Positions 3,387 to 36,300 of a stretch of 64,000 nucleotides of DNA are shown here, one piece after another. Within the stretch, counting starts at the first letter, position 1, and the number at the start of each line of letters is the position of its first letter. The DNA is from a virus. Under the pieces are notes generated by a model. It worked only from the letters and a program-made list of their open reading frames with translations. It made no database searches and was not told the DNA's origin. The position numbers and the translations under genes were made by a program. The stretch lies in the IMG/VR virus record IMGVR_UViG_3300018080_005419; one strand, given 5' to 3'.

Positions 3387-4076
3387 ATGTCAGATTCTAA
3401 AAAATTAGATGAACGGATTGAGCTAGTTCACGATTATTGGATTGATCCTGATAGTCGCGAAATTTGGATACATGGAATTGATAATACAGGTGATGAAGAA
3501 GGAGAGCCCGGTGTTGATCATCAAATGGCAACTCGTGTAATTAAAAATCTTCACTATCTCCGCAAACAATCTACAAGAGCAACTGTTACAATCCATCTCC
3601 ATACTTGTGGTGGATATGTAGGAGAAGGATTTGCTATTTACGATACTATCAGATTAATGCCTTATCCTGTAACAATCATCAGTTACACTCATGCCAGAAG
3701 TATGTCGTCAGTTATACTTCAAGCAGCAGCAGGACCAGATGATACAAGATTGCTTTTACCCAGTAGTCATTTTATGTTTCATTTTGGGTCATACGAAACA
3801 CATGGAATTTCTCAACAAGTTTATAGCGAAATTGATTTCTTTAAAAAGTATGATGAATTAATGATAGATATTTATATAGAATCTGTTAAAAATGGTAAAA
3901 AATTTAAAGGAGTAACAGATAAAAGAATCAGAAAAGAATTGATAGATAGAATGAACAGCAAAGTAGATGTTTATTTAACTGCTGAAGAAGCGGTTGAATG
4001 GGGATTTGCTGACGGAATACTTGAAACTTGGCCGAATACATGCAAATGGAAAAGAGGAAACACTAAGAAGGTTTAA
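3387..4076 (+). CDS. clpP: ClpP-like serine protease (S14 family)
   Basis: HTCGGYVGEGFAIYD, catalytic Ser in ARSMSS, His in HFMFH, Asp in DVYLTAEEAVEWGFAD. Confidence 0.85.
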   Translation: MSDSKKLDERIELVHDYWIDPDSREIWIHGIDNTGDEEGEPGVDHQMATRVIKNLHYLRKQSTRATVTIHLHTCGGYVGEGFAIYDTIRLMPYPVTIISYTHARSMSSVILQAAAGPDDTRLLLPSSHFMFHFGSYETHGISQQVYSEIDFFKKYDELMIDIYIESVKNGKKFKGVTDKRIRKELIDRMNSKVDVYLTAEEAVEWGFADGILETWPNTCKWKRGNTKKV

Positions 4077-5577: not shown

Positions 5578-7035
5578 CTACTCTATGGCCGTTAAGTCCA
5601 GTAAATGTCTGCTCTTTCCATTATAAAAGCAACCATCACTGTCAATATCAAACTTCCTTAACGGCACTGTCATAATATGCCCAGTTATCAAAGTTTTTTC
5701 AAGATCGTCAAAATGCTTCTCCCAAACAAAGAAAGATATGTCGTCAAAGTCGTCTGAAAATTCCACTATCCACATAGGATTCCCAGACTTTTTGGACACT
5801 GTTTTCTTAATTTTTCCTATAACTCCAAGGAAAACGCCCTCTTCCGTGTTCTTCAATTCTTCTATCTTTGAGATTCCATATTCGTCTAATTTATCGTATG
5901 TTTCCATAGGTATTAACGAATGGCTTAATGAAATTCCTAATAATTCTTCTTCTGCGCTTTTTCTTTCTTCTTCTCCAAAATGCACATACTCATAAGTTTT
6001 TTCTTTCCTTATTTCTCCTAAAAATTGATTAATCATAAATTCACGGTCGCCAAAACAATCAAAAGCGCCAGATTTAATCAGAGCCATAATTTTAGATTTA
6101 TTACACTTTCTTTTTTCAACCTTATCGTAAAAATCTTTGAGGGAGTTGAACGGCCTTTTAGTAAGAACTTCATTGGCACCAGCAGGACCTAAATTCTTAA
6201 TCATACTCAGGCCCCATCGAATAGTGTTTCCTTCTAAGGTGAATTTGTTTTCAGAATTGTTTACATCAGGGGGAATAATAGAAATACCCATCTTTCTAGC
6301 ATATTGAATATATTTTTTAAGAATGCTGCCACCTCTCTTATCCTTTTTGGCAATATCTGTAAAGTTTAAGAGAGCAGCCATAAATTGTATAGGGAAATGA
6401 ACTTTAAGGAATAATGACCAATATGCTACCATTGCATAAGATGCTGCGTGGCTTAAGTTGAAACCGTAGCCCCCATAATTTTTAAGAGTTTCAACAAAAG
6501 TATCTAATTGATCTTGCGTTATAAGTCCGTCTTTGACAGATTTTTGCGAACGTTTTTTAAAGTCTTCTAATAAAACTTGTAGTTTCTTCATTGTTTCAGC
6601 ATTATCTTTTCCCTTTGCTAATCCTTTTCTTAGAGCATTAGCTTCAGCACCAGAAAATCCTGCTAAACGTCTAGCAATTGCCATTGCACTTTCTTGGTAG
6701 ATTGGGAGATTGTAGGATCTATCCAGAACATCAGCAACAGCAGGAATCGACTCCCATCTTTCATATCCCTTCTTTCTCTTACCGTAAGTAACATGTAAAT
6801 TACCACTCAAAGGATCTGGTCTTCCCAAAGTAGTAGCAGCATACATATCAGCGAATGAATCAATCCCTATCTCTTTAATAATCCCAATAGCAACATCTGT
6901 CTCAAATTGAAAAATGCCAAATACATCTAATTTGTTCAAACGCTTAAAGCATTCTTGATCATCATCTGGAACTTTAGCCATATCAAGTGGTTCTGGAGAT
7001 ACATTTTCTACAATACCAGGGTCAATTTTAAGCAT
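5578..7035 (-). CDS. dnaE: DNA polymerase III alpha (family C), C-terminal fragment (fingers, HhH, OB-fold)
   Basis: EPLDMAKVPDDD, GIFQFE, LGRPDPL, LPIYQE, GYGFNLSHAASY, IRWGLSMIKNLG, LIKSGAFD, EEELLG and an OB-fold region. Confidence 0.92.
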   Translation of the reverse strand: MLKIDPGIVENVSPEPLDMAKVPDDDQECFKRLNKLDVFGIFQFETDVAIGIIKEIGIDSFADMYAATTLGRPDPLSGNLHVTYGKRKKGYERWESIPAVADVLDRSYNLPIYQESAMAIARRLAGFSGAEANALRKGLAKGKDNAETMKKLQVLLEDFKKRSQKSVKDGLITQDQLDTFVETLKNYGGYGFNLSHAASYAMVAYWSLFLKVHFPIQFMAALLNFTDIAKKDKRGGSILKKYIQYARKMGISIIPPDVNNSENKFTLEGNTIRWGLSMIKNLGPAGANEVLTKRPFNSLKDFYDKVEKRKCNKSKIMALIKSGAFDCFGDREFMINQFLGEIRKEKTYEYVHFGEEERKSAEEELLGISLSHSLIPMETYDKLDEYGISKIEELKNTEEGVFLGVIGKIKKTVSKKSGNPMWIVEFSDDFDDISFFVWEKHFDDLEKTLITGHIMTVPLRKFDIDSDGCFYNGKSRHLLDLTAIE

Positions 7036-7105
7036 TTCTCTATTTTCCTTTATATTTTTCCTAACAAGTGTGAATCTATTTTTACTTCAAACGGAGAATA
7101 ATAAA

Positions 7106-7375
7106 ATGGAAGAAAGACAAGATGAAGTTATTTTTCAAACCGCAGAAGAAGCTTTCCAAAAACTTGCCGATTTAACAGGCAAGAAAATAATGGTTCCTGA
7201 TAAGGCTGAACCAACAGTAGCAGAAGAAAATCAAGAAGAAGAAGCTGTTACTGGAGGCACAACAAAAGAATTAGCCGACAAGCTTAGAGAACAAGGTGAA
7301 AAATACGGAGAAGCAGCTGACAAATTAGAAGACATTGATTCTGAAATTGAATCTTTCGGAACAGCAATTGAATAG
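7106..7375 (+). CDS. Small acidic protein with AFQxLADxxGKKI motif, inserted antisense between the dnaE halves
   Basis: ATG at 7106 follows GGAG (the track starts at GTG 7070). Contains EEAFQKLADLTGKKIMV. Confidence 0.75.
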   Translation: MEERQDEVIFQTAEEAFQKLADLTGKKIMVPDKAEPTVAEENQEEEAVTGGTTKELADKLREQGEKYGEAADKLEDIDSEIESFGTAIE

Positions 7376-7378
7376 CAA

Positions 7379-9976
7379 TTAATCTAAACTCATCTCTAAA
7401 GCTGTTTCAGGAATTCCAATTAATTGATGTCCTGGCTCTAAGTCCCTAACTGTTGTTTCGTATATTTCTCCTTCCCAGTCTACTTCTACAATATCGTCTT
7501 CCTTTAAACGTATTAATCGACCGTCTTCTAATTTGATGACGGTCGTAGTTTTTTCAATTAGATCTAAAGCGTCTGAAATAATAGAAATCGTTCTTAATCC
7601 AAGAATGTCATATTTAACCAATCCAACTTCCTGAAGTTCTTTTAATGCTAATCCTTCAGTCCAACAAGCAACAACTTCTGCTTCGTCTTTGCCATCTTTT
7701 TTAGTTGTTAATTTTCGTACAGGAATCCATTTAGTAAGATCAACAGATGCTACAATCATACCTGCCGGATGTTTACCTATATTTCTAATTTGACCTCTTA
7801 AAGCTTTACATGCATTACTCATATAAGGATGTGCGTCAATTAGTCCTTTAATTGTTGGCTCTTTTTCTAACAAAGAACCCCAATCCATTTTATCAAGAGC
7901 GTCACCATCACTATCCGGATCATCATCATCTTTATATTTATCGTTCAATCCTTTAGTAATTGCATTTAAAAATCCAGGCTCAATACAAAAAACTCGTCCA
8001 ACATCTTTAATTGCTGTCTTTGTCCAAATTAATTGATAAGATCCAATACTACAAACGTGCTCTTCTCCAAATAATTTTCCCATTGCTTCTTTTACTTCTC
8101 GTCTATATCTTGGATCAACGTCCCAATCAATATCAGGAGGGTCAGATCTAGATTCGTCTAAAAATCGCTCGAAAAGAAGATTATACTTAATAGGATCAAG
8201 TTTTGTAATTTCTAAACAATACGATATTAAAGAACCAGCAGCACTTCCACGGCCAGGACCAGTCAATATCTTATGTTCTTTGCAATATTCAACAATCTTT
8301 CTGAAAATTAAAAAATAATCAGCAAAGTCAAGGTTTTCAATAACAGATAGTTCATGTTCCAATCTTTCTTCATATTTTGATTTGCCTGAAAGTTTAAATT
8401 TATCCATACCTTCTCGACAAAAAGATTTTAAATCAGCATTAGAATTATCACTCATCTTTGGTAATTTAATGGACGTATCAATGTCAAAGTTTTCAATAGA
8501 TCTAGCTAAACTTCTTGTGTCTCGAATAGCTTTCCAAAATATTTCCTCTGTAAAAACATCATCTTCGGGACCATGCATATCTTTCCAAGACTCGTATAAT
8601 TCATCTAATGTCTTAAAGTAGAAATCCTTTCCTTCAAACTCCCATACAGCATCTTCATTCAGAGACTTATCTAAATTACCTTCCCCTTTCATGATTCTAT
8701 CGGCATTTTCATCAAATACAGGAAGACAAGCCTCATATCCATTATCTTCTAAAAATTTACGAGCATATAAAAGACCATCTTGCAATATTGCTTGTTTACT
8801 TTCTAATTCGTTTTCTTCCTTCCATCTATCTGTTTTCGGATCTATTTCAAAACCTTCAGATGTTAATTTGGGCTTCATATATCCAGCAGCAACAGACATG
8901 GCTTTATCAACCATTGTTTTATTGTCTCGTATCATCAACAAAATATCGTGAACTTCTGAGTCTTCTTTTCTTAAATAATGTACATCTGTTGTAATTACAT
9001 ATTTAGCACCAACCCACTCACCAAATGCAATGAGCTTCCTATTAATGTCTATTTGTTCTTCCCATTCAATTAGGTTTAACTCGATATAAAAATCATCAAA
9101 AATGCTCTTATAAAAATCGTATCTCTCTTTTGCTATTTCTAATCTTTTATCCCAGGACACTTTTTCGTCATTTAGGATAGTAGGAATTTCTCCAGCGCCA
9201 CCATCAGTAGAAGTTGCAATGACTCCTTCTCCATGTTCTGCTAAAAAGTCACAATCTGTTCTTGGTTTATAATAGAATCCGTTTAATTCAGCATCGTTTT
9301 GAATTTGAATTATATTGAACCATCCCTTTAAATTTTTAGCCAATAGGATTTGATGAAAATTCCGACGATACTTCAACTTCATTTCGCCATCCATGTCTTT
9401 ATATGTTTCTTTCGGCAATTTTCTATATTGATTTAAATAAGCTTCAACTCCAAAGACGGGTTTCATTCCCAATTTTTTAGCCAGAATATATTGTTTTACC
9501 CATCCTCCAAGCGAACCATGATTTGTTGCTGTAAGATAAGTCCATCCCCTTTCCATCATTAGGTCTGCTCTTTTTTGTGCTGTTCCTAATCCATCACGCA
9601 AACTATATTCGTCATGTAAATGGAAATGAGCAAAATCTTCTAATGCTACCCTCTCAATAGTAGACAAAGTATCGTCGTCAATTTCGTCATCAATTCGAAC
9701 TGTTAAGTAATCCTTTATAGTTGGAGGATTGTCGCAATGGGAAAAGATTACAAGATTCGGATTGCAAATTTCTAATTCTTCTTGGAGAATTTCGGCATAA
9801 TTTTCATGATCCTTCAAGGTCACAAAAATGCACTGTTCTTTATCCAGATCAAGTCGTTCAAGGGTATAATCACAGTATTCTTGAGATGGTTCACTTTCTG
9901 TAACTATAACAAAATTATAGGACTTACGCTGAGGAGTTACAGGTTCAATATCTGGCAAATCAAGATAGGTAGGCAT
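7379..9976 (-). CDS. dnaE: DNA polymerase III alpha (family C), N-terminal fragment (N-extension, PHP, palm) with a 56-aa non-DnaE tail
   Basis: HFHLHDEYSLRDG, TNHGS, FGVEAY, ITTDVHY, GPGRGSAAGS, PPDIDWD, KHPAG, LVKYDILGLRT. Confidence 0.93.
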   Translation of the reverse strand: MPTYLDLPDIEPVTPQRKSYNFVIVTESEPSQEYCDYTLERLDLDKEQCIFVTLKDHENYAEILQEELEICNPNLVIFSHCDNPPTIKDYLTVRIDDEIDDDTLSTIERVALEDFAHFHLHDEYSLRDGLGTAQKRADLMMERGWTYLTATNHGSLGGWVKQYILAKKLGMKPVFGVEAYLNQYRKLPKETYKDMDGEMKLKYRRNFHQILLAKNLKGWFNIIQIQNDAELNGFYYKPRTDCDFLAEHGEGVIATSTDGGAGEIPTILNDEKVSWDKRLEIAKERYDFYKSIFDDFYIELNLIEWEEQIDINRKLIAFGEWVGAKYVITTDVHYLRKEDSEVHDILLMIRDNKTMVDKAMSVAAGYMKPKLTSEGFEIDPKTDRWKEENELESKQAILQDGLLYARKFLEDNGYEACLPVFDENADRIMKGEGNLDKSLNEDAVWEFEGKDFYFKTLDELYESWKDMHGPEDDVFTEEIFWKAIRDTRSLARSIENFDIDTSIKLPKMSDNSNADLKSFCREGMDKFKLSGKSKYEERLEHELSVIENLDFADYFLIFRKIVEYCKEHKILTGPGRGSAAGSLISYCLEITKLDPIKYNLLFERFLDESRSDPPDIDWDVDPRYRREVKEAMGKLFGEEHVCSIGSYQLIWTKTAIKDVGRVFCIEPGFLNAITKGLNDKYKDDDDPDSDGDALDKMDWGSLLEKEPTIKGLIDAHPYMSNACKALRGQIRNIGKHPAGMIVASVDLTKWIPVRKLTTKKDGKDEAEVVACWTEGLALKELQEVGLVKYDILGLRTISIISDALDLIEKTTTVIKLEDGRLIRLKEDDIVEVDWEGEIYETTVRDLEPGHQLIGIPETALEMSLD

Positions 9977-10100
9977 ATGTGTATCTTCTCCTTTCGTATA
10001 TCTTCTTTTATTCTACCTTTAGATCAAGAAAAAACTTCTATATTTCTTTATATTTTAGCCGTTTATGTAAGACGATTACTTTCTATAAGGAGTGAACACA

Positions 10101-11660
10101 ATGAATATTACTGGTGGACAGCTTAGGCTTCTCACAAAGGTTCTCCCAAGATTAAAGTTTGCTACAGTAGTCGGGCTTTCTCAATTTTTAGGGTTTGATC
10201 TTAATGGTTTGCTTAGTATCCGAACAGCAGGTAGAACCGCAGCTGTTGAGGATGAAGAAGCAAGAGAACAAGAAGACGTTGCACTAGAAGATATTATGGA
10301 GGGAAAAAGAGAGGAAGAAGAAACCCCCGCCAAAGATTATATTGAAGATCACTCAGATCCTACTATTGCTGCTTTTAATTCATATGTTGAAAATGATCTT
10401 GTTCGTAAAAAATATTTCCCAGATACAAAATTAAAACTACAAAAAGCCCTCGCAAATAATCCGAATGCCAACGAAATTATGCAAAAATTAAGTAGTCCTG
10501 AATTTACCAAATCAAGCAAAAAGCATACTGATATTAAAAAGGATGTCAGATCATATGCAAAGGAAGTTGGATTAACCGGGACAGAGATTGATTTAGCAGA
10601 TTCATATGTTTCACTACAAAGAATTCTTAACGGTAAATTTAGAACAGATTTTAAATCAATTATTATGAATCATGCTAAAAAAATAGTAAGTGCAAAAGTT
10701 CTTGAATCTTTAGAAGATGCTGTTGGTTGGATTATTACTGCTATAATACAAGGTCGAAAGATTCTGAACAAAAGTTTTTTACAGGGAGAGAGCGATCCCG
10801 AAAAGAGTTATTCATTAGAAGAACAAATTGATTTAAAGTATTTCGGAGAAGGAAAATACGTAGGTGCTCAAAGCATTATTGAAACACTTACACATCTTTC
10901 AAGGACAACAGCTGGAAATACTATAAAACTACTTAAAGGTGAAGAACATAGCAGTATACATGAGAGTGTAGGAGATGAAGAAGATTCTACAATGGGAGAT
11001 TTAATACGCGATAAAAGAACTGAAAGTCCTGATGAAGCTGAAATGAGAAGAGAAGTTAAAAAGATATTAGAAGAAGTTGTTAAAGAAAATGCAAAATCTA
11101 AAGAAGAAGCAGATACGATTTTATGGGCAATGGATTATGCTGAAAAGGCTCCCATTGAAAGAAAGGGAACCGGAGAAGGCGTAGGACTAGAAAGTACTTC
11201 ATATTATACTTCAGATCCAAAAGCATGGGAAGAAATTGGCATTATGTCGCAAAATGATTATAATAACCGAATAAGAGGTCCCATGCAAAGACTAAGACCG
11301 TTGATTGATGCACGTTTACGAAGCGAAATGGGAATTAGAATTTCATCTATTCTCAGTCAACAATTGTTAATTCGTGCAGCTGGAGGAGGCAAATTAAAAT
11401 TAGCATCTAAGATTTCTAACGTATCACCTTGGAGAAATTTTGGCAACGTTAAGGTATACGAAGCTGGCAAACCACAATTTGCTCACGAATTTTATTGGGA
11501 AATTGACGGTAACAAGGTTAAAATAGCAGATGTGCAGGATGTTGACGAAGAACATATCGATGAAGCATATCAGTCAGCACTGCAAGCTGTTCAACAAGAA
11601 GCATTTCGATCTAATTTAGAAGAAAAAGAGAAAAATAGTGTTGAAGGAAATATGGGCTAA
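10101..11660 (+). CDS. Large divergent sigma-70-like protein
   Basis: ATG at 10101 follows AAGGAG. SIHESVGDEEDSTMGDLIRDKRTESPDEAEMRREVKKILEEV closely matches sigma-70 region 3.2. Weaker region-2-like (LEDAVGWIITAI) and region-4-like (WEEIGI...RGPMQRLR) segments are present. Confidence 0.55.
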   Translation: MNITGGQLRLLTKVLPRLKFATVVGLSQFLGFDLNGLLSIRTAGRTAAVEDEEAREQEDVALEDIMEGKREEEETPAKDYIEDHSDPTIAAFNSYVENDLVRKKYFPDTKLKLQKALANNPNANEIMQKLSSPEFTKSSKKHTDIKKDVRSYAKEVGLTGTEIDLADSYVSLQRILNGKFRTDFKSIIMNHAKKIVSAKVLESLEDAVGWIITAIIQGRKILNKSFLQGESDPEKSYSLEEQIDLKYFGEGKYVGAQSIIETLTHLSRTTAGNTIKLLKGEEHSSIHESVGDEEDSTMGDLIRDKRTESPDEAEMRREVKKILEEVVKENAKSKEEADTILWAMDYAEKAPIERKGTGEGVGLESTSYYTSDPKAWEEIGIMSQNDYNNRIRGPMQRLRPLIDARLRSEMGIRISSILSQQLLIRAAGGGKLKLASKISNVSPWRNFGNVKVYEAGKPQFAHEFYWEIDGNKVKIADVQDVDEEHIDEAYQSALQAVQQEAFRSNLEEKEKNSVEGNMG

Positions 11661-12057
11661 GCTTTTTGGTAGCAAAGAAAAAGAAGCTACATTAAATATC
11701 AATCTCAATATTAAAGTGAAAGACCTCGACAGATTTGTCGAGGTTCTTTCAAAAATATCTCATAACTCGAATAACAACTTCAATAATAGGGATATAATAG
11801 AAGAAAGAGAAGTCAATAATAAAAATCAATCTGAGGAAAGACAAATTATTAATAAACCCATATCTGAAAAGAAAAAACATTTAAGTGAGGATCCTATTAC
11901 AGCAAAAGATGTAGCTGAAATATTTAATTCAACTGGCATCCAAAAAGGAGTTGATAAAACAGGATCTGACCTTTATAGTCACTCAAAAGGATCTAGTACA
12001 GATAACCAAGTTTCATCTTTAAAGAAACTCAAGAAAAAAGGAAATCAAAATGGTTAA
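11638..12057 (+). CDS. Hypothetical protein with putative N-terminal amphipathic helix
   Basis: Starts MLKEIWAKLFGSK and overlaps both neighbours, suggesting translational coupling. Confidence 0.7.
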   Translation: MLKEIWAKLFGSKEKEATLNINLNIKVKDLDRFVEVLSKISHNSNNNFNNRDIIEEREVNNKNQSEERQIINKPISEKKKHLSEDPITAKDVAEIFNSTGIQKGVDKTGSDLYSHSKGSSTDNQVSSLKKLKKKGNQNG

Positions 12058-13210
12058 AGAGAAAAAAGAAATTGCAGAAGTTCAAGACATTACAGATGAA
12101 GTTTTAAAGGCTGCTGAAAAACCAATTCAAAGAAAAGCTGTTACTGATGAAAATACAAAATATGGTGTTGGTCTAGATGTAGGAACAGCATTTGTTGTAG
12201 GTTCACGTCAAATCGATGATAAGGTTGAATTCAGATCGATCCGAAATGCTTATTATGCAATGCCCCCAAATCCGGTTATGCAAAAATTATTAACTGACGC
12301 AAGTAAAAAAGACAATGATTCTGAAAATGATCATGGTGGAACGGGTTATCTAGAAATGAATGGCGAAATTATTGTTATTGGAGAAAAAGCTTTAGCCTAT
12401 GCTGCAAGTAATCATTCTAATACTCGTAGACCAATGCAAAAAGGTGTTCTTTCACCCGATGACAATGCGGAAGCAATCATGTCTGTTCTGGTACAAAAGG
12501 CATTAGGAGAACCAAAAAAGAAAAATGAAGTTTGTCGTTTTTCTGTTCCTGCTGAGCCTTTTGATGACAAAGATATCGACATTATTTTCCATGAAGGTAT
12601 GGTTTCGGCTATTCTTGAAGATCTGGGTTATTCTGCACAAGCTATTAATGAAGGTGAAGCAATCTGTTATAGTGAATTGTCATCGGAAGAAGATCGTTTG
12701 ACTGGTGGCGCTTTTTCTCTTGGTGGCGGACAAAGCAACGGTTGTATTATGTTTGAAGGTCGTCCTGTGATTAGCTTCAGTGTTGCTCGTGGTGGTGACT
12801 GGATAGATGAAAAGAGCTTCAAGCATGCAAGAATGCAAAGTGCTGCCGAAATGACCTATTTTAAAGAGAATAATAAAGTTGATCTAATAAGTCCTAAAGG
12901 TTGCACAGATAATGATAGAGCAGCAGCAGCATTAGCTATGTATTATCGTTATCATATTCGATCTCTAGTTGAAGCTGTATCTGATCTGATCTCTAAAGAA
13001 AAAGTAGTGCCGACATTTGATAAACCAATTAAGTGGGTTGTTGGTGGTGGAACTTCGAGGGCAGTAAACTGTGTTCAAATGATAAAAGACGAGTTTTCTA
13101 AACAAAAATTGCCATTTGTCTTAGAAGATGTTGTCCAGGCAGAAAATCCAATGACATCTGTTTCAAATGGATGTTTGATTGCTGCAAGGCTGGATGAAGA
13201 TGAAGAATAA
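12050..13210 (+). CDS. Actin-like ATPase (MreB/ParM/FtsA superfamily)
   Basis: Phosphate-1 GLDVGT, connect-1 INEGEA, phosphate-2-like SLGGGQS, GGDWID, adenosine VVGGGTS, connect-2 NPMTSVSNG. Confidence 0.8.
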   Translation: MVKEKKEIAEVQDITDEVLKAAEKPIQRKAVTDENTKYGVGLDVGTAFVVGSRQIDDKVEFRSIRNAYYAMPPNPVMQKLLTDASKKDNDSENDHGGTGYLEMNGEIIVIGEKALAYAASNHSNTRRPMQKGVLSPDDNAEAIMSVLVQKALGEPKKKNEVCRFSVPAEPFDDKDIDIIFHEGMVSAILEDLGYSAQAINEGEAICYSELSSEEDRLTGGAFSLGGGQSNGCIMFEGRPVISFSVARGGDWIDEKSFKHARMQSAAEMTYFKENNKVDLISPKGCTDNDRAAAALAMYYRYHIRSLVEAVSDLISKEKVVPTFDKPIKWVVGGGTSRAVNCVQMIKDEFSKQKLPFVLEDVVQAENPMTSVSNGCLIAARLDEDEE

Positions 13211-13358
13211 ACAACAGCCAATAAAAGGCATTAATTTAGATTTACTTAAAAAGAAATTGCAAGATGCAGAGGATGACGAAAACGATTATCCTTCCTCTTC
13301 TTTGATTTTAAAGCTCGTCAGAGGAATTAAGCCGCATGCCAAACAACGTGAGCGGTGA
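13200..13358 (+). CDS. Putative 52-aa small protein
   Basis: Manual translation gives MKNKQQPIKGINLDLLKKKLQDAEDDENDYPSSSLILKLVRGIKPHAKQRER. It overlaps the end of the actin-like gene and fills the gap to the next gene. Confidence 0.45.
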   Translation: MKNKQQPIKGINLDLLKKKLQDAEDDENDYPSSSLILKLVRGIKPHAKQRER

Positions 13359-14007
13359 GGACTATGACGAAGATATAACCATAGAACTTGCTCAATATAC
13401 TGAACCTGCCCTTAGCTCTGCATTGATGATTCGTCGCAGACTTGATTCAACTAATAAGAAAAACTTTAATCAAGACAGTTTTAATAAAAAATTTCCAGGC
13501 CAAAGAAATTTAGATATTGGTTGCGGGAACTGTGTAGAAAAAGGCTGGATTCGTTTAGATTGCAATGAAAGATATAAACCAGATTTATTAATGGATGCAC
13601 ATAATATTTTATTAGGAAATAATTGTATAGATTTAGCCAGAATGCATTATGTTCTAGGATATGTAATAGAGCCGTCTAAAGTATTGTCAGAAGTATGGAG
13701 AATCTTAAAACCGAATTCATTATTGTATCTAGTAAATGGCGCTCCTGCATCTGATATTCAACTAATGCCAGGAGTTCGTCACTCTTTTCCTAAACTTTTT
13801 TGGGAAGATGTTAATAAAAATAATCCAAGACTCTATATTCCTGAAGATTCAAAAGGAAAATGGGAATTAGAAGATGAGAGATACGATTGGTCGCAAACCG
13901 CAAACAAACTCGCATCAAAATTAAAACTAACAAGAGAATTGGTCGTTACTACATTCAGAAATGTAGTAAGTAAGCAATATATAACTCTTCGAAAAATTTC
14001 AAAATAG
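13336..14007 (+). CDS. Class I SAM-dependent methyltransferase-like protein
   Basis: Motif I LDIGCG, GWIRLD, MDAH, VLSEVWRILKP. The true start may be downstream. Confidence 0.75.
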   Translation: MPNNVSGEDYDEDITIELAQYTEPALSSALMIRRRLDSTNKKNFNQDSFNKKFPGQRNLDIGCGNCVEKGWIRLDCNERYKPDLLMDAHNILLGNNCIDLARMHYVLGYVIEPSKVLSEVWRILKPNSLLYLVNGAPASDIQLMPGVRHSFPKLFWEDVNKNNPRLYIPEDSKGKWELEDERYDWSQTANKLASKLKLTRELVVTTFRNVVSKQYITLRKISK

Positions 14008-14009
14008 AA

Positions 14010-14192
14010 TTAAACAAAACCACTTTCAGCATCAAGAAATTTTTGATTTTGTTTCATAATCATATCTACAGTTTCTTTGTCAATGTTTAAATATTTTATC
14101 ATTAACTCTCTGGTTTTAGGACTTTGTCTTGGTATTACACTCATTAACAATTTTAACTGACCTTTTGAAAGACTATTTTTGTTAATATCCAT
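14010..14192 (-). CDS. 60-aa protein homologous to the N-terminus of the 10101 sigma-like protein
   Basis: GQLKLLMSVIPRQSPKTRELMIKYLNID aligns with GQLRLLTKVLPRLKFATVVGLSQFLGFD. AGGAG RBS. Confidence 0.7.
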   Translation of the reverse strand: MDINKNSLSKGQLKLLMSVIPRQSPKTRELMIKYLNIDKETVDMIMKQNQKFLDAESGFV

Positions 14193-14244
14193 TTTATTTT
14201 CCTCCTTATTACAACATAATAAATCATCTTTCGCCTATATATAC

Positions 14245-14274
14245 AAAACCCCACAATAAAATTTGTGAGGTTTT
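14245..14274. terminator. Probable bidirectional intrinsic terminator
   Basis: aaaaccccacaa...ttgtgaggtttt hairpin, with A-rich left flank and T-rich right flank on the plus strand. Confidence 0.55.
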
Positions 14275-14307
14275 TTATTTTTTAATAAAGATTTTTGTTA
14301 GATGAAA

Positions 14308-14763
14308 TCAAGGTTGGACGATTTTGCTCGTATCTCCTTGAGGAACAATAATTTGTGATTGTTGTTCTCTTTGTTGCTGCTTTGCTTTTTCTTGTTCTAT
14401 TGCTATTCTTTGCCTTGTTTTATCAAGTTCTTTATCCATTATTGTATCAAATTTGTCTATAGCTTCTCTGGCATTTTTAATACCAGTCATTTGGAAGCTA
14501 TATGGTGTTAGTTGACCCATTGCCATTACGTGAGTTTTGCCAATGAACTTTCGAGGTTTATCTTTATCAATTGAAATTTTACCAGATTGAGAAATACTTA
14601 TAGGTACTAACATATCAATAGCAACCAATTGGCTATCTGTAATACACTCTAACTTATACAATTGACGATCTGACGTAGAAATACGGCTAATGTCTTCTTT
14701 TGGTTGTTCTTCTTTCTTTTCTTCTTCTTGTTTCTTGTCATCTTCTTTTCTTTCTTCTTCCAT
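14308..14763 (-). CDS. Hypothetical protein
   Basis: 151-aa ORF with charged termini. No family recognised. Confidence 0.7.
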   Translation of the reverse strand: MEEERKEDDKKQEEEKKEEQPKEDISRISTSDRQLYKLECITDSQLVAIDMLVPISISQSGKISIDKDKPRKFIGKTHVMAMGQLTPYSFQMTGIKNAREAIDKFDTIMDKELDKTRQRIAIEQEKAKQQQREQQSQIIVPQGDTSKIVQP

Positions 14764-14781
14764 TGCTTTCCCTTTCTTGGT

Positions 14782-15936
14782 TTAATTCCCAGCTACAACA
14801 TGAAATATTCTATGAAAAATAGAAATCTTTAAAGCATCCCACATTTTATCTCTAATTTCTGACGGCACATCGGAAACTTTAAATATTCCTAAAGGCACAG
14901 TAGCTCCAGCAGATCCCATTTTTCCGCCGCCATGTTGTTTACCAAAAACAGCTTTGGCAAACCCATTAACATCTAGAGAGGTATTAGCAGATCTTATACT
15001 AGCAACAAGATTATCAGATACTATACCAAAAACAACAGCAGTTTCAATACCTTCCATACGAACTACTTTATCTGCTAACATAGGTATTGCATCTCGTTTA
15101 GCAGCAGTGGTTATCCCAATACACCCGACTAAACATGACCCTTTAGATTTTTGATTAACGAAATTGCCCTCATGATCTACCTTATTTATCTCTCTTTCCG
15201 CTTCAAAAAAATAACTAGGAAGAGGATAATCAATAATACCAGCAAGTTTTTTACGATTAACAAAATTTGCTAATTCTTTAAATGCATCAAAATCTTTATC
15301 CGTGGTGTTTTCGCTTATCATATCTTGAGTATCAATTCGAATACCTAAGAATAATGCCGTTGCTACATCTTGATCTATTTCTTCTTCGAATTCAATCTGT
15401 AATTCTTTTATCAGTTCCCATATCAAAGTTGATGTAGACCCTATTGGTTCGATCCATGACAATTCTGCATTACTAGTAACTCTATGATGATCAATAACAA
15501 GGTTTGGATTTTCAGAAGCAGAGTTCTTTTCAGTGCAATCAAGACAAATTTGAATATTAAACTCATCGTTTATTTCTTCAGTCTTATGTAAACGAATATC
15601 TAAAATATTTACCATTGTTTTGTTTTGAGGATGGCTTATATCTCCATCATAATATATGTTTGATACTAATGCATGTTTTTTAGCCAAAAGCCATTGTAAT
15701 GCTCTTGCCGAACCAATAGCGTCTGGATCTGGTGCGTTATGAATTATAATTGCAACTTTATTGGGTGGTTTTTCCTTGTCTTCATTTATAGCAATGTTTT
15801 CCAAAAATTCAGAAACATCATTTATAATCCCACGTTGTTCTTCTAGGGTTTCTTTGGGAGAAATATCATTTTGATTTTCTTCTATCAATAAATCTTTAGA
15901 AATAATCTGACTAGTCTTTTTTGGATTAGAAGTCAA
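14782..15936 (-). CDS. DHH/DHHA1 phosphoesterase (NrnA-like)
   Basis: HNAPDPDAIGS, CLDC, VIDHH, IRIDT, SIRS and GGGKMGSAG. TTG start after GGAGG. Confidence 0.85.
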   Translation of the reverse strand: MTSNPKKTSQIISKDLLIEENQNDISPKETLEEQRGIINDVSEFLENIAINEDKEKPPNKVAIIIHNAPDPDAIGSARALQWLLAKKHALVSNIYYDGDISHPQNKTMVNILDIRLHKTEEINDEFNIQICLDCTEKNSASENPNLVIDHHRVTSNAELSWIEPIGSTSTLIWELIKELQIEFEEEIDQDVATALFLGIRIDTQDMISENTTDKDFDAFKELANFVNRKKLAGIIDYPLPSYFFEAEREINKVDHEGNFVNQKSKGSCLVGCIGITTAAKRDAIPMLADKVVRMEGIETAVVFGIVSDNLVASIRSANTSLDVNGFAKAVFGKQHGGGKMGSAGATVPLGIFKVSDVPSEIRDKMWDALKISIFHRIFHVVAGN

Positions 15937-18760: not shown

Positions 18761-19570
18761 TTATGACTTGATTTTGAATTTTTTTTCGAGTTTGCTACGA
18801 TTAGTTCTTTTTATATGGCGAATTTCTTCTTTAGAAAGAGTTGCATTAAATGTTGTTTTGTGATTATGAAAAACATATGAACCTAAAGATACTCTAATTT
18901 TATATTCATTATTATATATTCGAAGACATAAATCATCATCGTCTCCATAGCCCAATCCATAAATAGGATCTAAAAGTCCCACCTTTTGAAAAATTTCTTT
19001 GCGGAAAATTGTACAGAAAAAAGCAACCATAGGACAGGATATCCCCATAGGAGCTTCAATATGTTTAGTATTAAAATAAGAATCTAAAATTTTACCTCTT
19101 GCATCAGTATCTAATTCTTTCAAGTTTGGATATTGTTGAATACCTGAACTTTTAAATAAACGCTTCCATCCTTGAAGTGACGATTCGGCTGATGAAACAG
19201 GACCGATAGCACCTATTTTGTTATCACTTTCAAGAATGAAAGTCATCTTATCTAACCATGTTGCAGAAACTTCTATATCGTTATTTAAAATTGCAAAATA
19301 TTCACAATCTTTTCCATAAGGAGTATTCAATAATATTTCTATACCATTATTTACACCTTTAACGAATCCTAAATTTGTATCGGACCATATAGATAAACGA
19401 TTTTTATGCTGTTTAAAAGAATTTATCACTGATTGTTTAGATTTTTCTGTAGATCCATTATCCATCCATACTAATAAATAATCATCTGTATGTTTTAAAA
19501 TAGAATCAAAACAACGAATTGTAAATTCTTCTTGACCATATGTTGGAATAATAAGAGCCGTTTTAGGCAT
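18761..19570 (-). CDS. Glycosyltransferase family 2
   Basis: IIPTYG, MDNGS, NLGFVKGVNNG, ILNNDI, GYGDDDDLC. Confidence 0.88.
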   Translation of the reverse strand: MPKTALIIPTYGQEEFTIRCFDSILKHTDDYLLVWMDNGSTEKSKQSVINSFKQHKNRLSIWSDTNLGFVKGVNNGIEILLNTPYGKDCEYFAILNNDIEVSATWLDKMTFILESDNKIGAIGPVSSAESSLQGWKRLFKSSGIQQYPNLKELDTDARGKILDSYFNTKHIEAPMGISCPMVAFFCTIFRKEIFQKVGLLDPIYGLGYGDDDDLCLRIYNNEYKIRVSLGSYVFHNHKTTFNATLSKEEIRHIKRTNRSKLEKKFKIKS

Positions 19571-19577
19571 TTTAATA

Positions 19578-21029
19578 TTATCCTTGATGACTCGACTTTA
19601 AAAAAGTTTGTGTTAAATTGGTAGTTGGGTCTATTGTTTGATATTGTAAATTATTTTTATATGCTACATAATTAAAACTCAATTGATCTCGCTTGCTATG
19701 AGCTTTTACTTCTCGCCACCATAATTCCATAACATTGATTATTTCATTGTCATTGTGTTCTCGAATAATTGTTCCCGTCATAGCTAAACCTATATTCTTA
19801 GGAAATCCTTCATTTTCATACTTTTCTATTTGTATCCTCATAGTCTTAGCTTGATCTTTTCTTAAGTCTATACATGCTTGCAATTCATCATAAAGACAGT
19901 CTCTTAAATCATGCTTCATTAACATAATTTTTTGTGTGCGTTTTTGAAAAAGTTGGTTCATATTACTATTAATTTTTAAATTCCCATCAATCCACAAACT
20001 CGTTTCATATTCGGTTAAAAATCTATGAGGAAGGATTTTATACATTCTTGCTGTTTTAGCATGATTGCAGTCAATAGTATCCACATATCGAATATCCCAA
20101 GTAGAAGACTTAATACTATTGTTATCAGTAAAGCAAATATAGTCTATACCATTTTCTTTATTTGGAACTTCATTTAATTGATCATAGTCTCCCATTATCG
20201 CAGTATAAATAACTAATCTATTTTGTTTATTTTCTGATGATTTATAAAAATAAGGATTTGTAGTATTAGCAGACCATCTTCCATCCAAATAAAGATTTCG
20301 TTCTAATGGTTTATGTACGGATTTTGCAATTATTAATGGTCCTTCATTCAAACACACATATGAAGAAAGCTCATCCTTTTGCAATTCTATTAAAGCATTG
20401 GATATCATATCTTCAGGAAAAACATATTTTTCTAAATCGTAATTTTCATCTAAACTAAATAATATATATTGCCCTTGTATGTCTTTGGCATCTTTAGTAA
20501 ATTCGAAACAATTATAAATTTGGTTTGCCAGTTTATCTTTAAAAATAGACAAATTACTTTCAGAATCAAAAATAGATATTAAACCGTTATATCCAAATAT
20601 TTCTGTATGAGGAATTAAATTCTCTTCGTTAAAATTAAAATCATAAACTATTGATCCTTGATATTTTTGATAATTTATATAAAAATCACTTTCGATTTCA
20701 TCATCACAAAATAATGCTATCGAATTTCTTGTGTCGGGAGATAAACAACAAACTGAAAACTTGGCTTGTAATTCAGTCTCTAAAAATATAACATCTTTAA
20801 ATAATAATTCGTAAAACGCATTATCTTTTAATTTTCTACCATCTATTGTCCAAGATTGGTTCAAATTGTTTTGATTATCTATTTCAAATTTTACAATTAT
20901 TGTTGTGCGATTTTTTCGACAATATGTTCCAAATTTTATACATAGAGAATTAATCTCTTTTTTAGCTGGCAAAATAATCTCTTGTTTAACAAGACTTTTA
21001 GCTGTTAATGGACCTACTGGTTTTTCCAT
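19578..21029 (-). CDS. Glycosyltransferase, DUF616/TOD1-like C-terminal domain with an extra N-terminal domain
   Basis: VIYTAIMGDYD, CFTDN, YKILPHRFL, LWIDGN, RDQLSFNYV. Confidence 0.75.
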   Translation of the reverse strand: MEKPVGPLTAKSLVKQEIILPAKKEINSLCIKFGTYCRKNRTTIIVKFEIDNQNNLNQSWTIDGRKLKDNAFYELLFKDVIFLETELQAKFSVCCLSPDTRNSIALFCDDEIESDFYINYQKYQGSIVYDFNFNEENLIPHTEIFGYNGLISIFDSESNLSIFKDKLANQIYNCFEFTKDAKDIQGQYILFSLDENYDLEKYVFPEDMISNALIELQKDELSSYVCLNEGPLIIAKSVHKPLERNLYLDGRWSANTTNPYFYKSSENKQNRLVIYTAIMGDYDQLNEVPNKENGIDYICFTDNNSIKSSTWDIRYVDTIDCNHAKTARMYKILPHRFLTEYETSLWIDGNLKINSNMNQLFQKRTQKIMLMKHDLRDCLYDELQACIDLRKDQAKTMRIQIEKYENEGFPKNIGLAMTGTIIREHNDNEIINVMELWWREVKAHSKRDQLSFNYVAYKNNLQYQTIDPTTNLTQTFLKSSHQG

Positions 21030-28095: not shown

Positions 28096-29010
28096 CTAGT
28101 TGTTATTAATTATGTCCCAAATATCAACCACATCATTATGCAAAATTGATGTCAATTTCTTCTCAGAAAATACTTCAAATGGGCGAGGAGGAACAATTTG
28201 ACTTGAGAGAATTAAAGGAATAAAATCGTGTTTCTTAAGCCAAGGATCAACACGATCAACAATACGTTTAACAACTCCTGGAGAAACATCAAATTTTTCA
28301 GCAACAATTTCGATGCATTTCTTATTTCTGCCGGTTTTTGGTTTAGGAAGTTTCTTGATATCCAAAAGCATATTGAGAATGCGATAATCTTTTAATGTTT
28401 TGCATACCGATTTATAAAGTTTCATTCTCATTTGCTCAAAAACAATCATATCCTCACTCTTTTGTCGCTCTTTATCCATTACTTCAAGGCTGGGAGGTTC
28501 ATACTCTTTGTTTTCTTCATCAACAAAATTGTGGATTGAAATTGGATTGAAATTTGCTTCAATAAATTCAATATCACCATCATTATTCCGCTTTGTTGTA
28601 ATTCCTGTTATCATTCGCGCCTCTTTATGTTTAATCAATTTAAGATATGTTGAACGTAGAATGACACCAATATAAGTAGAAGGTAAAATTGGTTTTTTCT
28701 CTCCATCTTTATTTAATCGATATGGCTGATATTTCTTTAATCTTGTCCATACACTTATCATGCCATATTGAACAAGGTCGCTAAGAGAGAAAAATTCCTT
28801 AAGACTTGAATGAAAATTTTGAGCCATTTTAATCGCAAACCTATGATAACTATTTGTAAGTTGTAGATCTTCTTCTTTAGTAATTGTATCATTCTGCAAT
28901 TTTTTAATAAGTTTCTTTTGTAGTTTATTTCTCTCTTTTGAATTTAAATCTTCATATGTTGAGTCTAAGTAAATGTACTCGTACTGTTTTTCGTTTTTTT
29001 CTCGTAACAT
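28096..29010 (-). CDS. Phage sigma-70-family transcription factor
   Basis: Region 2-like LTNSYHRFAIKMAQNF...SLSDLVQYGMISVW...STYI, and region 4 HTH IEIVAEKFDVSPGVVKRI. Start moved to ATG 29010, which has an RBS. Confidence 0.7.
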   Translation of the reverse strand: MLREKNEKQYEYIYLDSTYEDLNSKERNKLQKKLIKKLQNDTITKEEDLQLTNSYHRFAIKMAQNFHSSLKEFFSLSDLVQYGMISVWTRLKKYQPYRLNKDGEKKPILPSTYIGVILRSTYLKLIKHKEARMITGITTKRNNDGDIEFIEANFNPISIHNFVDEENKEYEPPSLEVMDKERQKSEDMIVFEQMRMKLYKSVCKTLKDYRILNMLLDIKKLPKPKTGRNKKCIEIVAEKFDVSPGVVKRIVDRVDPWLKKHDFIPLILSSQIVPPRPFEVFSEKKLTSILHNDVVDIWDIINNN

Positions 29011-29046
29011 GCTTCTCCACCCTCCCCAGAACAACCTGCTATCAAC

Positions 29047-33331: not shown

Positions 33332-36300
33332 TTATAAATATTTAAGTGCTTCTTTCGCTCCAAAGGATTTAATAGCGCAAACTTGATCTACATTGTCTCC
33401 AATAGCCGCAGCAGAAAGAACATCCTTATCTTTTAATACCTTTCTTACATGGTCTTCTATTGTATTCAAACAAATAAAATTAATTACATTTACCACATGT
33501 TTTGTCGTAATTCTGTGCGCTCTATCCGTTCTCTGTTTCATAATAGCCGGAGACCAATTGTCATCGTAATGTAAAACATAAGATGCTTCCTGGAAATTAA
33601 GTCCTGTTGATCCTGCTTCATCCATAACACAGATATTTACTGTTGGATCTTCATTGAATTCTTTAGCAATTTGAGGGCGCTTTTTCTTGGATACTCTCCC
33701 TGTAATTTTAAAAGTTTTCCAACCATTCTTTTCAAATTCTACATACAATCTGTCTACCATTTGTTCAAACATAGAAAACACTAAAACCTTATTATTATTA
33801 GCAATAACTTCTTCTAATAATTCCATACAAGCATTAAATTTAGATCCAAATTCGGGATATTCATCGACAAGAAAAGGAGCATTACAAAATTGTCGCGCTC
33901 TTAAAACTGCTGTAATTACTTCTGCTTCTTCGGTGACTTTATGGGCTTGATTACGAATAGCATTATATATTTTTCTTTCCTCTGTTGACAATTCCACATA
34001 TACATTTTTAAAGATCTTTTCAGGCAGTTCTTTTGCTACTTCTTCTTTTAATCTTCTCAGAAAAAATGGCTCTATTGTTTTTCTTACCTCATCAACATTC
34101 ATATACCCAACAACTGCATTCCATTCATTTCTAATAGCATACTTGTCTAAGAATTTTCCTCTTGTCATAAATAAACCAGGAACAAGAAATTCAAAAATGC
34201 TATGTAGATCTTCTAGTTTTCCATCAATTGGAGTTCCTGACAATCCTATTCTAATGCCGTTTTCTGAAAGCTTAAGTTTCTTCATTACTTTGGATCTAGT
34301 TGATTTCCAATTTTTAAGCATATGAATTTCATCAACAATAATAATATCAAAATCATCACGTAAAACATCAGCATCATCAAAATCTCTTACTATTAATTCT
34401 GGATTAACAACAATAAAAAAGGCATCTGTATTCCAAAGCGTATCTCGTTTATCAGGAGAACCATCAACAATTACAAAATCTTCATTTGTCCAGAATTCCA
34501 GTTCTTCTTTCCAGTTATATTTAACAGAAGCAGGAGCAACAATTAAACATTTTTTTGCTTTATTAAATTTCTTTCTCCAGAGCGCCATTGCTATTGATTG
34601 CATACTATTATGCCCGAGAGCTAAATCTACCACATAATTAGATTCACCACTAATTTCAAAATCATATACATAATCATTATATTTTTCTTCTTTTATATCT
34701 TGAATTTGTAGCCATATATAATCTTCATAAATCATAGATTCTAATTCTTTAAGTGTTTCTTTAATTTCTTTTTTGTTATCTTTTAAATTCTTTTTCATAG
34801 CTTCTCGTCTAGCACTCCATTTGGATCGTGTAATATCAGGAATGCCATTTTTAATCACATTTTTAATTGTTTTTATAATTTTAATAACTGTTTCTGTTGA
34901 GGGATTTTGAGGTATGACTTTTTCCGAAACATGTACATATTCAATTCCACTAAGATTGTATGTAAAATCGCTAATTTTTAATAGTTTCCTTAATATGTGT
35001 CTGCATGGAATACTATTGGCAATATTTGTATTTTCTGTTTTGGAACATAGTTTATTTAATCTTTCATTTTTTCTTTTCGAAATAAATCCTATTTTTTCTT
35101 TAAATATCCTTGCATATTTTCCTCCTATGGTGATTCTCCAATATAATGCATTTCCCCACCTCGGAGTATATATTGTTTTATTATTTATAACTCCAACTAT
35201 TCCAAAACGTCTTAACATATAGTGCATAGATCTAATTATACTTTCTGATTTTGAAGATAATTCAATATTGTCCTTGTTACAACACCCCTCTGCTTCAAAA
35301 TAGTGTTGAATAAATGCCTTAGCAACACTTTCATTAGAATTAGTAATTTTTTCAGGAATAATTTTATCCCCCGAAAGAGAACCCCAACAATAATCTGGAA
35401 ATTTTTTCTTCAACCAATTTTTATATATTTTAGAAGTAATTCTTAAATAAGAACAATGATTTCTGTCTTCTTTGATAAGATGTATATTTGGATTTTCTTC
35501 AAATTTTAAGTCTTTAAAAATTTTTCGAAGTTTGATAAGAATAGATCTTTCTTTTTGAGAAATTGTAAAAGTGCTTGATTTATATTCGTGACCCTCTGCA
35601 ATTTGCCAAGCTAATAATATTGCACAATTTTTATTTATTTCCTCTTTACTATTACATGATGGAATTATTTTTGGAACTAATATCCAATCTCCAATTTTTA
35701 GATTTTTAGCTTTAATCCATTTATTTTCATTGTTCCAAAATAAATGTCTCAATCCGACCTCTATTTTAGATCCATCCTGAAGAGTAATCGATCTTATTTT
35801 TCTTACCTTTTCTCTATAAATATTTATCGCTTTTTGATATTTTGATTTTTGTTTTTTAATTCCCAAAACTTTAATTTTTGATAATTTTCTCCATTCTCCT
35901 CTTCCTTCTTTAATCGATGTATTTGGATCGCTATAGTTATCCCATATTTCTTCTAATGTTGTAGATCCGATATTTTTAACACAAACTCTACTATTTTTAG
36001 AGGCGCATTTGCCGAGTCCCATGGTATCCCCAAGAAGCAAACCATATTTTACCAGGGTGAAGAATTGTACACCTAGTTTTTGATAATTTCTTAGAGATAT
36101 TCCTTCTGGGGGACTAATACCTGGGATTCTTAAGGATATGGGATGATCTTTGAGTGCTGCCTTTTTAACTTTTTTAAGCTCTTCTATTCTTGCTACTTCT
36201 TGTTCTGTTATATCACCTATTCTTGGATCTAAAAAATCAAAGGGGATTTTATCTAATAACATTTCAAGATTAGGAATAGTAAAGAACCAAGCCCATCCTT

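Follow-up and report, generated by a model that had tools for sequence, protein, structure and literature searches.

The viral metagenomic record IMGVR_UViG_3300018080_005419 was analyzed over a stretch of 64,000 nucleotides (nt), referred to as the window below. It carries a divergent sigma-like gene at 10101–11660 (+), encoding a protein of 519 amino acids (aa), and a second gene at 14010–14192 (−), encoding a protein of 60 aa that resembles the N-terminal domain (N-domain) of the sigma-like protein. On computational support and with a probability of roughly 0.4, the 60-aa protein can be considered a lineage-specific, sigma-derived anti-sigma factor or modulator on the core-binding face of the phage sigma-like factor. 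According to the proposed mechanism, the 519-aa protein would be a very divergent initiation factor of the sigma-70 superfamily belonging to a jumbo phage. Its core would combine a helix of region 1.2, a domain resembling sigma-2, the finger of region 3.2 and a domain resembling sigma-4, would lack sigma-3, and would be flanked by two family-specific conserved modules, the 47-aa N-domain on an acidic tether and a C-terminal domain (C-domain) of about 105 aa. The 60-aa protein would represent an old, diverged, lineage-specific copy of the N-domain that docks on the surface of the region 1.2-like and region 2.2-like helices. This docking would most likely block or tune holoenzyme formation, giving a minimal anti-sigma factor or modulator, and the cis N-domain on its acidic tether may occupy the same site. 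Family membership of the N-domain, motif similarity, the order of the sigma-like domains and the predicted interface were computed; the direction of the effect, inhibition or activation, we infer.

Residue numbers of the sigma-like protein refer to the 522-aa translation from GTG 10092 and are converted to the 519-aa numbering by subtraction of 3. Residues 6–52 of the small protein (14037–14177, −) align ungapped with the N-domain, which covers residues 5–50 (10104–10241, +), at an identity of about 27% over 47 aa. By BLASTP, 12 of 36 positions are identical between the 60-aa and the sigma-like protein (E 4e-4). A hidden Markov model (HMM) of the N-domain with 47 columns was built from 16 relatives, excluding the window's own protein. 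Among 922 six-frame open reading frames (ORFs) the 60-aa ORF was its sole other significant match (E 6.4e-4). With an ungapped 47-column profile it scores 21.8 compared to 3.2 for the next ORF (z = 6.1), and none of 5000 shuffles was as good. The resemblance over some 30 residues, from which a preceding sequence-only reading had described the N-terminus of the sigma-like protein as repeated in the small gene, is hence significant at the profile level. The wording needs to be narrowed, since strong likeness is confined to the 15-aa motif LSKGQLKLLMSVIPR (14127–14171, −) and the remaining 30 columns are marginal (p = 0.02 in fixed register). The 60-aa protein is about equally similar (26–30% identity) to several family members and does not possess the terminal IRxAG motif, both of which speak for an old, diverged copy and against a recent duplication. 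The gene is called in three assemblies and is preceded by the Shine-Dalgarno sequence AAGGAGG (14201–14207, −), located 8 nt before its ATG in the same style as that of the sigma-like gene.

Binding of the small protein was predicted by co-folding it with the full-length sigma-like protein, the latter supplied with its alignment, in three runs accompanied by three controls. The interaction prediction score from aligned errors (ipSAE) amounted to 0.66–0.68 in the three runs and 0.00 in the best control; of 80 solved complexes, 58 attain the mark used for this score, as do 2 of 110 mismatched pairs. Between the runs, at least 81% of the contacts are in common, with a predicted local distance difference test (pLDDT) of at least 72 for the partner. 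In the predicted interface, residues 8–37 of the small protein, that is the segment homologous to the N-domain, face residues 90–102, 204–225 and 280–281 of the sigma-like protein. Structural mapping with an offset of about 196 to E. coli sigma-70 assigns the helix 207–220 to region 2.2 and the helix 90–119 to region 1.2. Among the contacting residues, D209, G212 (replaced by N in most relatives) and T216 together make up the polar, conserved face of the 2.2-like helix. In sigma-70, RNA polymerase is contacted at its beta-prime clamp helices mainly through region 2.2. The predicted interface would accordingly match the core-binding face, and because of this role of region 2.2, binding of the small protein would be expected to compete with core binding. 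The sequence-only reading had suggested, among other roles, a partner of the sigma-like factor; this part stands as a prediction, with an ipSAE of 0.67 against 0.00 for the best control and the homologous segment at the interface.

Several observations weigh against an anti-sigma function of the small protein. The predicted interface on the sigma side does not exceed the remainder of its domain in conservation (0.59 vs 0.83, p = 0.83), and in the monomer model the cis N-domain is not confidently docked (pLDDT 47–65). An ipSAE, even of the size found here, is the confidence of the model itself and no demonstration of binding, and it can also be passed by close cousins of a true partner. Further, the small gene is absent at the matching position in L002, a related metagenomic locus syntenic with the window, and no stand-alone copy of the N-domain was found in 45 kb of the four related loci compared (L001–L004). 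The three assemblies are identical over 11–21 kb and hence offer no variation from which selection on the 60-aa gene could be read, nor does the gene show conservation to this end. A search for homologues of the 60-aa protein, at near and longer lengths, returned only itself among 5.8 billion proteins, and an ESM Atlas feature search with it gave no usable match. Given this result and the absence from syntenic L002, the two genes are not a conserved pair and the small gene is an orphan. The proposal of an undescribed regulatory pair, understood as a conserved two-gene system, is not supported.

Descent of the 519-aa protein from the sigma superfamily is very likely, with evidence that is individually weak and consistent in sequence and fold; the earlier designation as a sigma-like factor is supported in this sense. 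The region 3.2-like acidic linker ("sigma finger", residues 284–315, 10941–11036, +) is matched by profile and hhalign searches and, below the cut-off, by Pfam. A profile of four family members matches RpoD/SigA in the PDB (E 0.03–0.04) and, in a library of 1.84 billion representatives, a genuine RpoD (E 3.4e-4). Comparison by hhalign with an RpoD alignment built from 15 loci gave P 3.4e-5 and a probability of 72% for this region, so that the region 3.2 match reported from the letters of the DNA could be confirmed. A second hhalign match (P 7.8e-4) covers 153 columns and proceeds in order from region 2.1 via 2.2–2.4 and 3.2 into region 4. Here, an AKK of the sigma-like protein is aligned to the AKK of region 2.1, and the whole sigma-3 domain of the template is placed opposite a gap; the sigma-like protein appears to lack sigma-3.

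Structure predictions point in the same direction. The AlphaFold2 model of the sigma-like protein exhibits a pLDDT of 62.7 overall and of about 90 for residues 90–200. When it was compared with the PDB by Foldseek, all of the top 50 matches were sigma factors (best E 0.015). After re-alignment of the chains, 48 of the top 50 were sigma factors, with residues 80–415 mapping in order onto the range from region 1.2 to the end of region 4.2; for example, model residue 185 corresponds to residue 381 of E. coli sigma-70 and model residues 413–416 to 611–613. A Foldseek-independent search of 48,161 chains returned sigma factors for 13 of the top 50, including phiEco32 gp36 (9m7y chain F, Z 6.0). With an independent ESM Atlas model, all six structural rows were sigma clusters, among them Sigma70_r3 and Sigma70_r4 clusters, and 8 of 30 feature matches fell into a viral sigma-factor cluster. 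The sequence-only reading had assumed about 200 aa of non-sigma sequence in front of the region 3.2 match and about 100 aa behind it. The former is wrong, as residues 80–415 align with sigma regions 1.2–4.2, which leaves about 85 aa at the N-terminus and about 105 aa at the C-terminus outside the core.

The assignment is burdened by a number of findings. The Pfam sigma models all stay below their thresholds: a score is obtained for Sigma70_r3 alone (13.2 bits, E 0.1, gathering cut-off 25.3), and Sigma70_r2 and Sigma70_r4 are not matched at E ≤ 1 in 15 family members. Structural matches do not exceed a Z of 6.2, at a large root-mean-square deviation of about 21 Å over the multi-domain alignment, and the Foldseek E-values are 0.015 or higher. 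With a broader profile of 15 family sequences the sigma signal against the PDB is lost, leaving a chance match at E 0.43, probably due to the many insertions that degrade this alignment. In region 2.3, the aromatic residues for melting of the −10 element are not conserved in the family; YVGAQSII is found opposite ATWWIRQAI of the template, in a stretch that hhalign aligns with low confidence.

Taken by themselves, these points would fit a helical protein that is no sigma factor, whose acidic loop resembles region 3.2 by chance and whose function resides in the N- and C-domains, an explanation that would cut across all others discussed here. The sub-threshold Pfam scores, the failure of the broad family profile in the PDB and the missing −10-melting aromatics agree with it, as does the fact that a Z of about 6 is often obtained by chance with helical models. 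Chance resemblance is confronted with matches that are almost exclusively sigma factors, in order and from two independent structure predictions, as well as with the hhalign match, in which regions 2.1 through 4 follow one another correctly. Additionally, a second weak sigma-like gene is present in the same phage. It encodes 312 aa, lies at 28096–29034 (−) between the primase and helicase genes, and matches Sigma70_r2 below threshold (E 9.6e-4, 19.3 bits vs 24). Its presence suggests that the phage uses sigma-type regulation, and divergent sigma-type factors seem to number two or more in this phage. We therefore hold a protein unrelated to sigma factors to be improbable and regard the 519-aa protein as a two-domain core, similar to those of extracytoplasmic function (ECF) sigma factors, with a region 1.2 helix and with uncertain promoter-melting chemistry.

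The gene model and the remaining domains can be described as follows. AAGGAG at 10087–10092 lies 8 nt upstream of ATG 10101, and GTG 10092 falls within the Shine-Dalgarno spacer. Since, in addition, relatives begin with MNLSK or MKLSK, ATG 10101 is taken as the true start; a 519-aa gene is called here in three assemblies. The N-domain is basic and follows the consensus LSxxxLxxLxxxLPKM...IRxAG, with three helices (8–20, 23–33 and 37–55) predicted at low pLDDT (47–65). It is connected by an acidic disordered linker (residues 51–88, 10242–10355, +; pLDDT 25–38), whose length varies across the family, to the helical domain that resembles region 1.2 and sigma-2 in structure and hhalign alignments (residues 89–283, 10356–10940, +). 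The latter contains the 2.1-like AKK motif and the 2.2-like helix 207–220. Behind the finger, a sigma-4-like helical region with an insertion (residues 316–415, 11037–11336, +) is supported by structure alignments, which stop at residues 611–613 of E. coli sigma-70, and by the ESM Atlas matches to Sigma70_r3/r4 clusters; its sequence signal is weak.

The C-domain (residues 416–522, 11337–11657, +) consists of a helix, a four-stranded antiparallel sheet and a long helix, and G451, V455, P461, H465 and H488 are invariant across the family. Folded alone from 18 sequences (pLDDT 73) and compared with the 48,161 chains, it gave SpoVG, a salivary protein and the Aha1 N-domain as best matches; no fold or function was assigned, because the best Z of 6.0 is within the noise. 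Its opening amphipathic helix (profile positions 398–440) also occurs elsewhere as a long tandem repeat, judging from 40 separate matches of the family profile in the 2660-aa protein P0013.

To the sigma-like protein, a word-indexed search yielded three relatives only. From their alignment, an exhaustive HMMER search of the 1.84 billion representatives retrieved 24, of which 15 have E ≤ 1e-30 and all are unannotated. Searching 50,697 phage records by tblastn with the 522-aa protein gave no match, nor did a pattern scan of IMG/VR viral contigs reveal a relative. The protein thus belongs to a small, unannotated family found only in metagenomes. The syntenic locus L002 has the N-terminal half of DnaE, the sigma-like gene, an ORF of 144 aa and two ORFs sized like the actin and methyltransferase genes of the window; from the sigma-like gene onwards, the gene order of the window's operon is preserved. 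On its other strand, L002 holds a 141-aa gene homologous to the 151-aa gene of the window (E 8e-26) and, after it, ORFs sized like the DHH and exonuclease genes.

In other relatives the sigma-like gene is duplicated or broken. In L004, two tandem full-length paralogues, each with N-domain and C-domain, are located at 8265–9989 and 10001–11797. In L006 (1716–3301) and also in L007, a TAA stop together with a change of frame breaks the gene after 114 aa, in two samples. The frame downstream of the break lacks the C-domain and continues, with no stop between, into a second N-domain (MKLSSLQLEEF...), which looks like a fusion or decay of two tandem copies. Two short proteins considered as stand-alone homologues of the N-domain were discarded. 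P0022 (114 aa) is the 5' piece of a sigma-like gene split by a frameshift, with the break at about residue 147 in the sigma-2-like domain in two samples; P0019 (76 aa) lies on a contig of 974 bp upstream of a weakly matching body fragment. Neither corresponds cleanly to the 60-aa gene.

The N-domain and C-domain are the best-conserved parts of the family, with conservation scores of 1.55 and 2.08, respectively, compared to 0.7–0.8 for the sigma-like core. That the N-domain exceeds the core so clearly (1.55 vs about 0.8) suggests a conserved external partner. The N-domain might thus bind RNA polymerase, a phage co-factor or, via a helix-turn-helix (HTH), DNA, and the 60-aa copy would compete for this third party in a PhyR/NepR/sigma-EcfG style of mimicry. 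Besides the unremarkable conservation of the predicted sigma-2 interface, this idea draws on the appearance of both proteins as three-helix bundles of the HTH type: the 60-aa protein is matched to HTH_Tnp_1-like structural clusters (template modelling score 0.56), and residues 1–59 of the sigma-like protein to the DUX4 homeodomain (Z 4.8 in the Foldseek-independent structure search). A precedent for a sigma-derived domain acting as a decoy exists in PhyR–NepR (PMC4814048, PMC4551977). The co-fold, however, confidently puts the small protein on the sigma-like protein itself, the conserved IRxAG end motif of the family is missing in the small protein, and no candidate for a third partner was identified. 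Competition for an external partner consequently appears unlikely to us.

A similar, low likelihood is given to the explanation that the 15-aa motif arose by convergence or chance, and that the 60-aa ORF is unrelated or non-functional and the sigma-like factor independent of it. The restriction of strong similarity to about 15 residues, with p = 0.02 for the remainder, the lack of homologues and of a counterpart in L002, and the lack of variation among the three assemblies would all be expected for such an ORF. A chance origin is difficult to reconcile with the significance of the independent profile over all six-frame ORFs of the window and the distance to the next score, with the strong and correctly spaced ribosome-binding site, and with a co-fold interface that coincides exactly with the similar segment when all controls remain at 0.00.

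Docking of a sigma-derived modulator could also be extended to a toggle on two levels. The N-domain would then be a built-in cis anti-sigma module folding back on the region 1.2/2.2 face, one lineage would have freed a trans-acting copy, and the antisense position of the small gene would couple regulation at the protein level to regulation at the transcription level. The position is defined by the end of the small gene, which lies 2 nt from the last stop codon of the plus-strand genes (14007). Between the two convergent stop codons no terminator-like site was found. A terminator-like and possibly bidirectional hairpin, bordered by an A-run and, at its opposite flank, a U-run, is located at 14241–14278 (−) between the 151-aa gene and the 60-aa gene; its minimum free energy of −15 kcal/mol (z = −5.07) was not equaled in any of 200 shuffles. 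Since there is no terminator at 14007–14010 and the sole strong hairpin is positioned beyond the small gene, the plus-strand operon is probably transcribed onward, in antisense to the 60-aa gene, as far as this hairpin. The complete toggle is rather doubtful; if true, it would be the first case of an anti-sigma factor derived from its own sigma factor.

Very improbable, finally, is a shared N-terminal address for the capsid interior or another compartment, or a removable pro-sequence as in pro-sigma-E and pro-sigma-K of Bacillus: the domain is N-terminal, followed by a disordered acidic linker, and a Clp-type protease gene (3387–4076) is situated near the plus-strand genes, but only two carriers occur in the 74 kb searched, a folded domain of 47 aa on one protein family is unlike short tags on many carriers, and the family alignment contains no conserved cleavage motif after the domain. 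The search for further N-domain copies covered the 64-kb window and 10 kb upstream (74 kb of the 280-kb contig) and gave none, so that the targeting tag put forward in the sequence-only reading is not upheld. A terminal peptide of the type EEAIQYL..GK.V.I, observed in the contig region just upstream of the window (L011) on unrelated proteins including an aldo/keto reductase (12476–13447, 13605–13781 and 19241–19678), is a different motif without relation to the N-domain.

The window is part of a metagenomic contig of 280,011 bp with a G+C content of 34%. Genes for a split DnaE, RecA, a DnaB-like helicase, a primase, a 5'-3' exonuclease, a Clp protease, a tail-tube protein and an intein-bearing SNF2 helicase were found on the contig, which is accordingly that of a jumbo phage. 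DnaE is divided over two genes at 5578–9976 (−), one for PHP and the polymerase core and one for fingers and HhH, and an intein that includes a LAGLIDADG endonuclease domain splits the SNF2 helicase gene (33332–36478, −). Nearly all genes of the window are encoded on the minus strand. The plus-strand island at 10101–14007 comprises four main genes, namely the sigma-like gene, an ORF of 139 aa, an actin of the Volactin family and a methyltransferase; in one assembly the gene caller reports an extra 52-aa ORF between the actin and methyltransferase genes. The actin-fold gene (12050–13210, +; Pfam Volactin, E 7e-56) shares the operon with the sigma-like gene. Ending at 14010, the small gene is convergent with the island and closes it, as had been noticed in the sequence. 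A scan for consensus promoters in 9800–14900 gave 22 sites compared to 18.6 ± 4.6 in shuffled sequence, and no promoter is claimed because this count shows no excess. In L011, a gene of the metallo-beta-lactamase fold (14794–15642) has precomputed matches to the Anti-Pycsar Apyc1 family (PF23023), making it a candidate counter-defence enzyme that degrades cyclic nucleotides.

Three known systems resemble the pair most: phiEco32 gp36 with gp79, ECF sigma factors with regulatory extensions, and the mimicry switch of NepR and PhyR. In phage phiEco32, which has the sigma factor gp36 and its small partner gp79, gp79 binds RNA polymerase first, displaces host sigma-4 and stabilizes gp36 (PMC12276001; PDB 9m7y). 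In both cases a divergent phage sigma factor is accompanied by a small phage protein that binds it and controls its use of RNA polymerase, which for the window is a prediction. Unlike gp79, which is unrelated to any part of gp36, the 60-aa protein would be a copy of the N-domain of its sigma factor and is predicted on the sigma-2 face. The proteins of the window have no sequence similarity to gp36 or gp79.

Fused regulatory extensions acting in cis are described for ECF sigma factors (review PMC8999054), for instance a SnoaL-like C-terminal extension, SnoaL_2 (PMC7730460). With its sigma-2/sigma-4-like core, the apparent lack of sigma-3 and the extra terminal domains the window family resembles them; it differs in its region 1.2-like helix and its long acidic tether, and the ECF extensions are unrelated domains. 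To our knowledge, no free paralogue of such an extension acts in trans.

Small helical proteins that bind sigma factors have precedents in gp79 of phiEco32 with gp36 (PMC12276001) and in NepR (PMC4551977). In the NepR/PhyR/sigma-EcfG system, PhyR copies the sigma-2/sigma-4 core and titrates the anti-sigma factor (PMC4551977, PMC4814048). A helical protein of about 60 aa with an anti-sigma role, proposed in the case of the window, and the principle of a sigma-homologous domain that competes in a binding equilibrium (sigma mimicry) are features in common. In contrast, the free protein of the window copies the non-core N-domain; there is neither a phosphorylation module nor homology, and the origin is a phage.

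The layout of the N-terminus is also reminiscent of region 1.1 of sigma-70, an acidic N-terminal helical domain that is connected to region 1.2 by an acidic flexible linker and autoinhibits free sigma. The predicted N-terminal helices, the acidic tether and the position before region 1.2 would fit, whereas the N-domain of the window is basic and Pfam Sigma70_r1_1 is not matched at E ≤ 1 in 15 family members. Free paralogues of region 1.1 are not known to us. The pro-sequences of Bacillus pro-sigma-E and pro-sigma-K, with 20–27 aa, keep sigma inactive and are removed by proteolysis, and AsiA of T4 is a small phage protein binding region 4 of host sigma-70. The N-terminal extension of the window protein resembles the former and a small phage protein predicted to bind sigma the latter; we know of no stand-alone paralogue for either.

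Overall, the pair behaves like a sigma/anti-sigma system, and in operational terms it stays below the Pfam thresholds and its two genes are not found together across genomes. What is new is where the small partner would come from, namely a copied accessory domain of the sigma factor itself. No published description of such a copy as a small partner was found, in literature that was not searched specifically for it. The observation is real but modest, comprising a 15-aa motif and an orphan gene in a single phage lineage, and should the binding not exist, no more is left than a divergent phage sigma factor of ordinary kind beside an orphan gene. It nevertheless defines an unannotated, metagenome-only family of sigma-like proteins with two conserved accessory domains. 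Phage sigma factors and small proteins that steer RNA polymerase are switches of developmental programmes and serve as orthogonal parts in synthetic biology. The case suggests a simple evolutionary route to an anti-sigma factor or modulator, the duplication of the sigma factor's own regulatory domain; if true, anti-sigma factors would have a further, new origin, and a compact, portable sigma/anti-sigma pair would become available.

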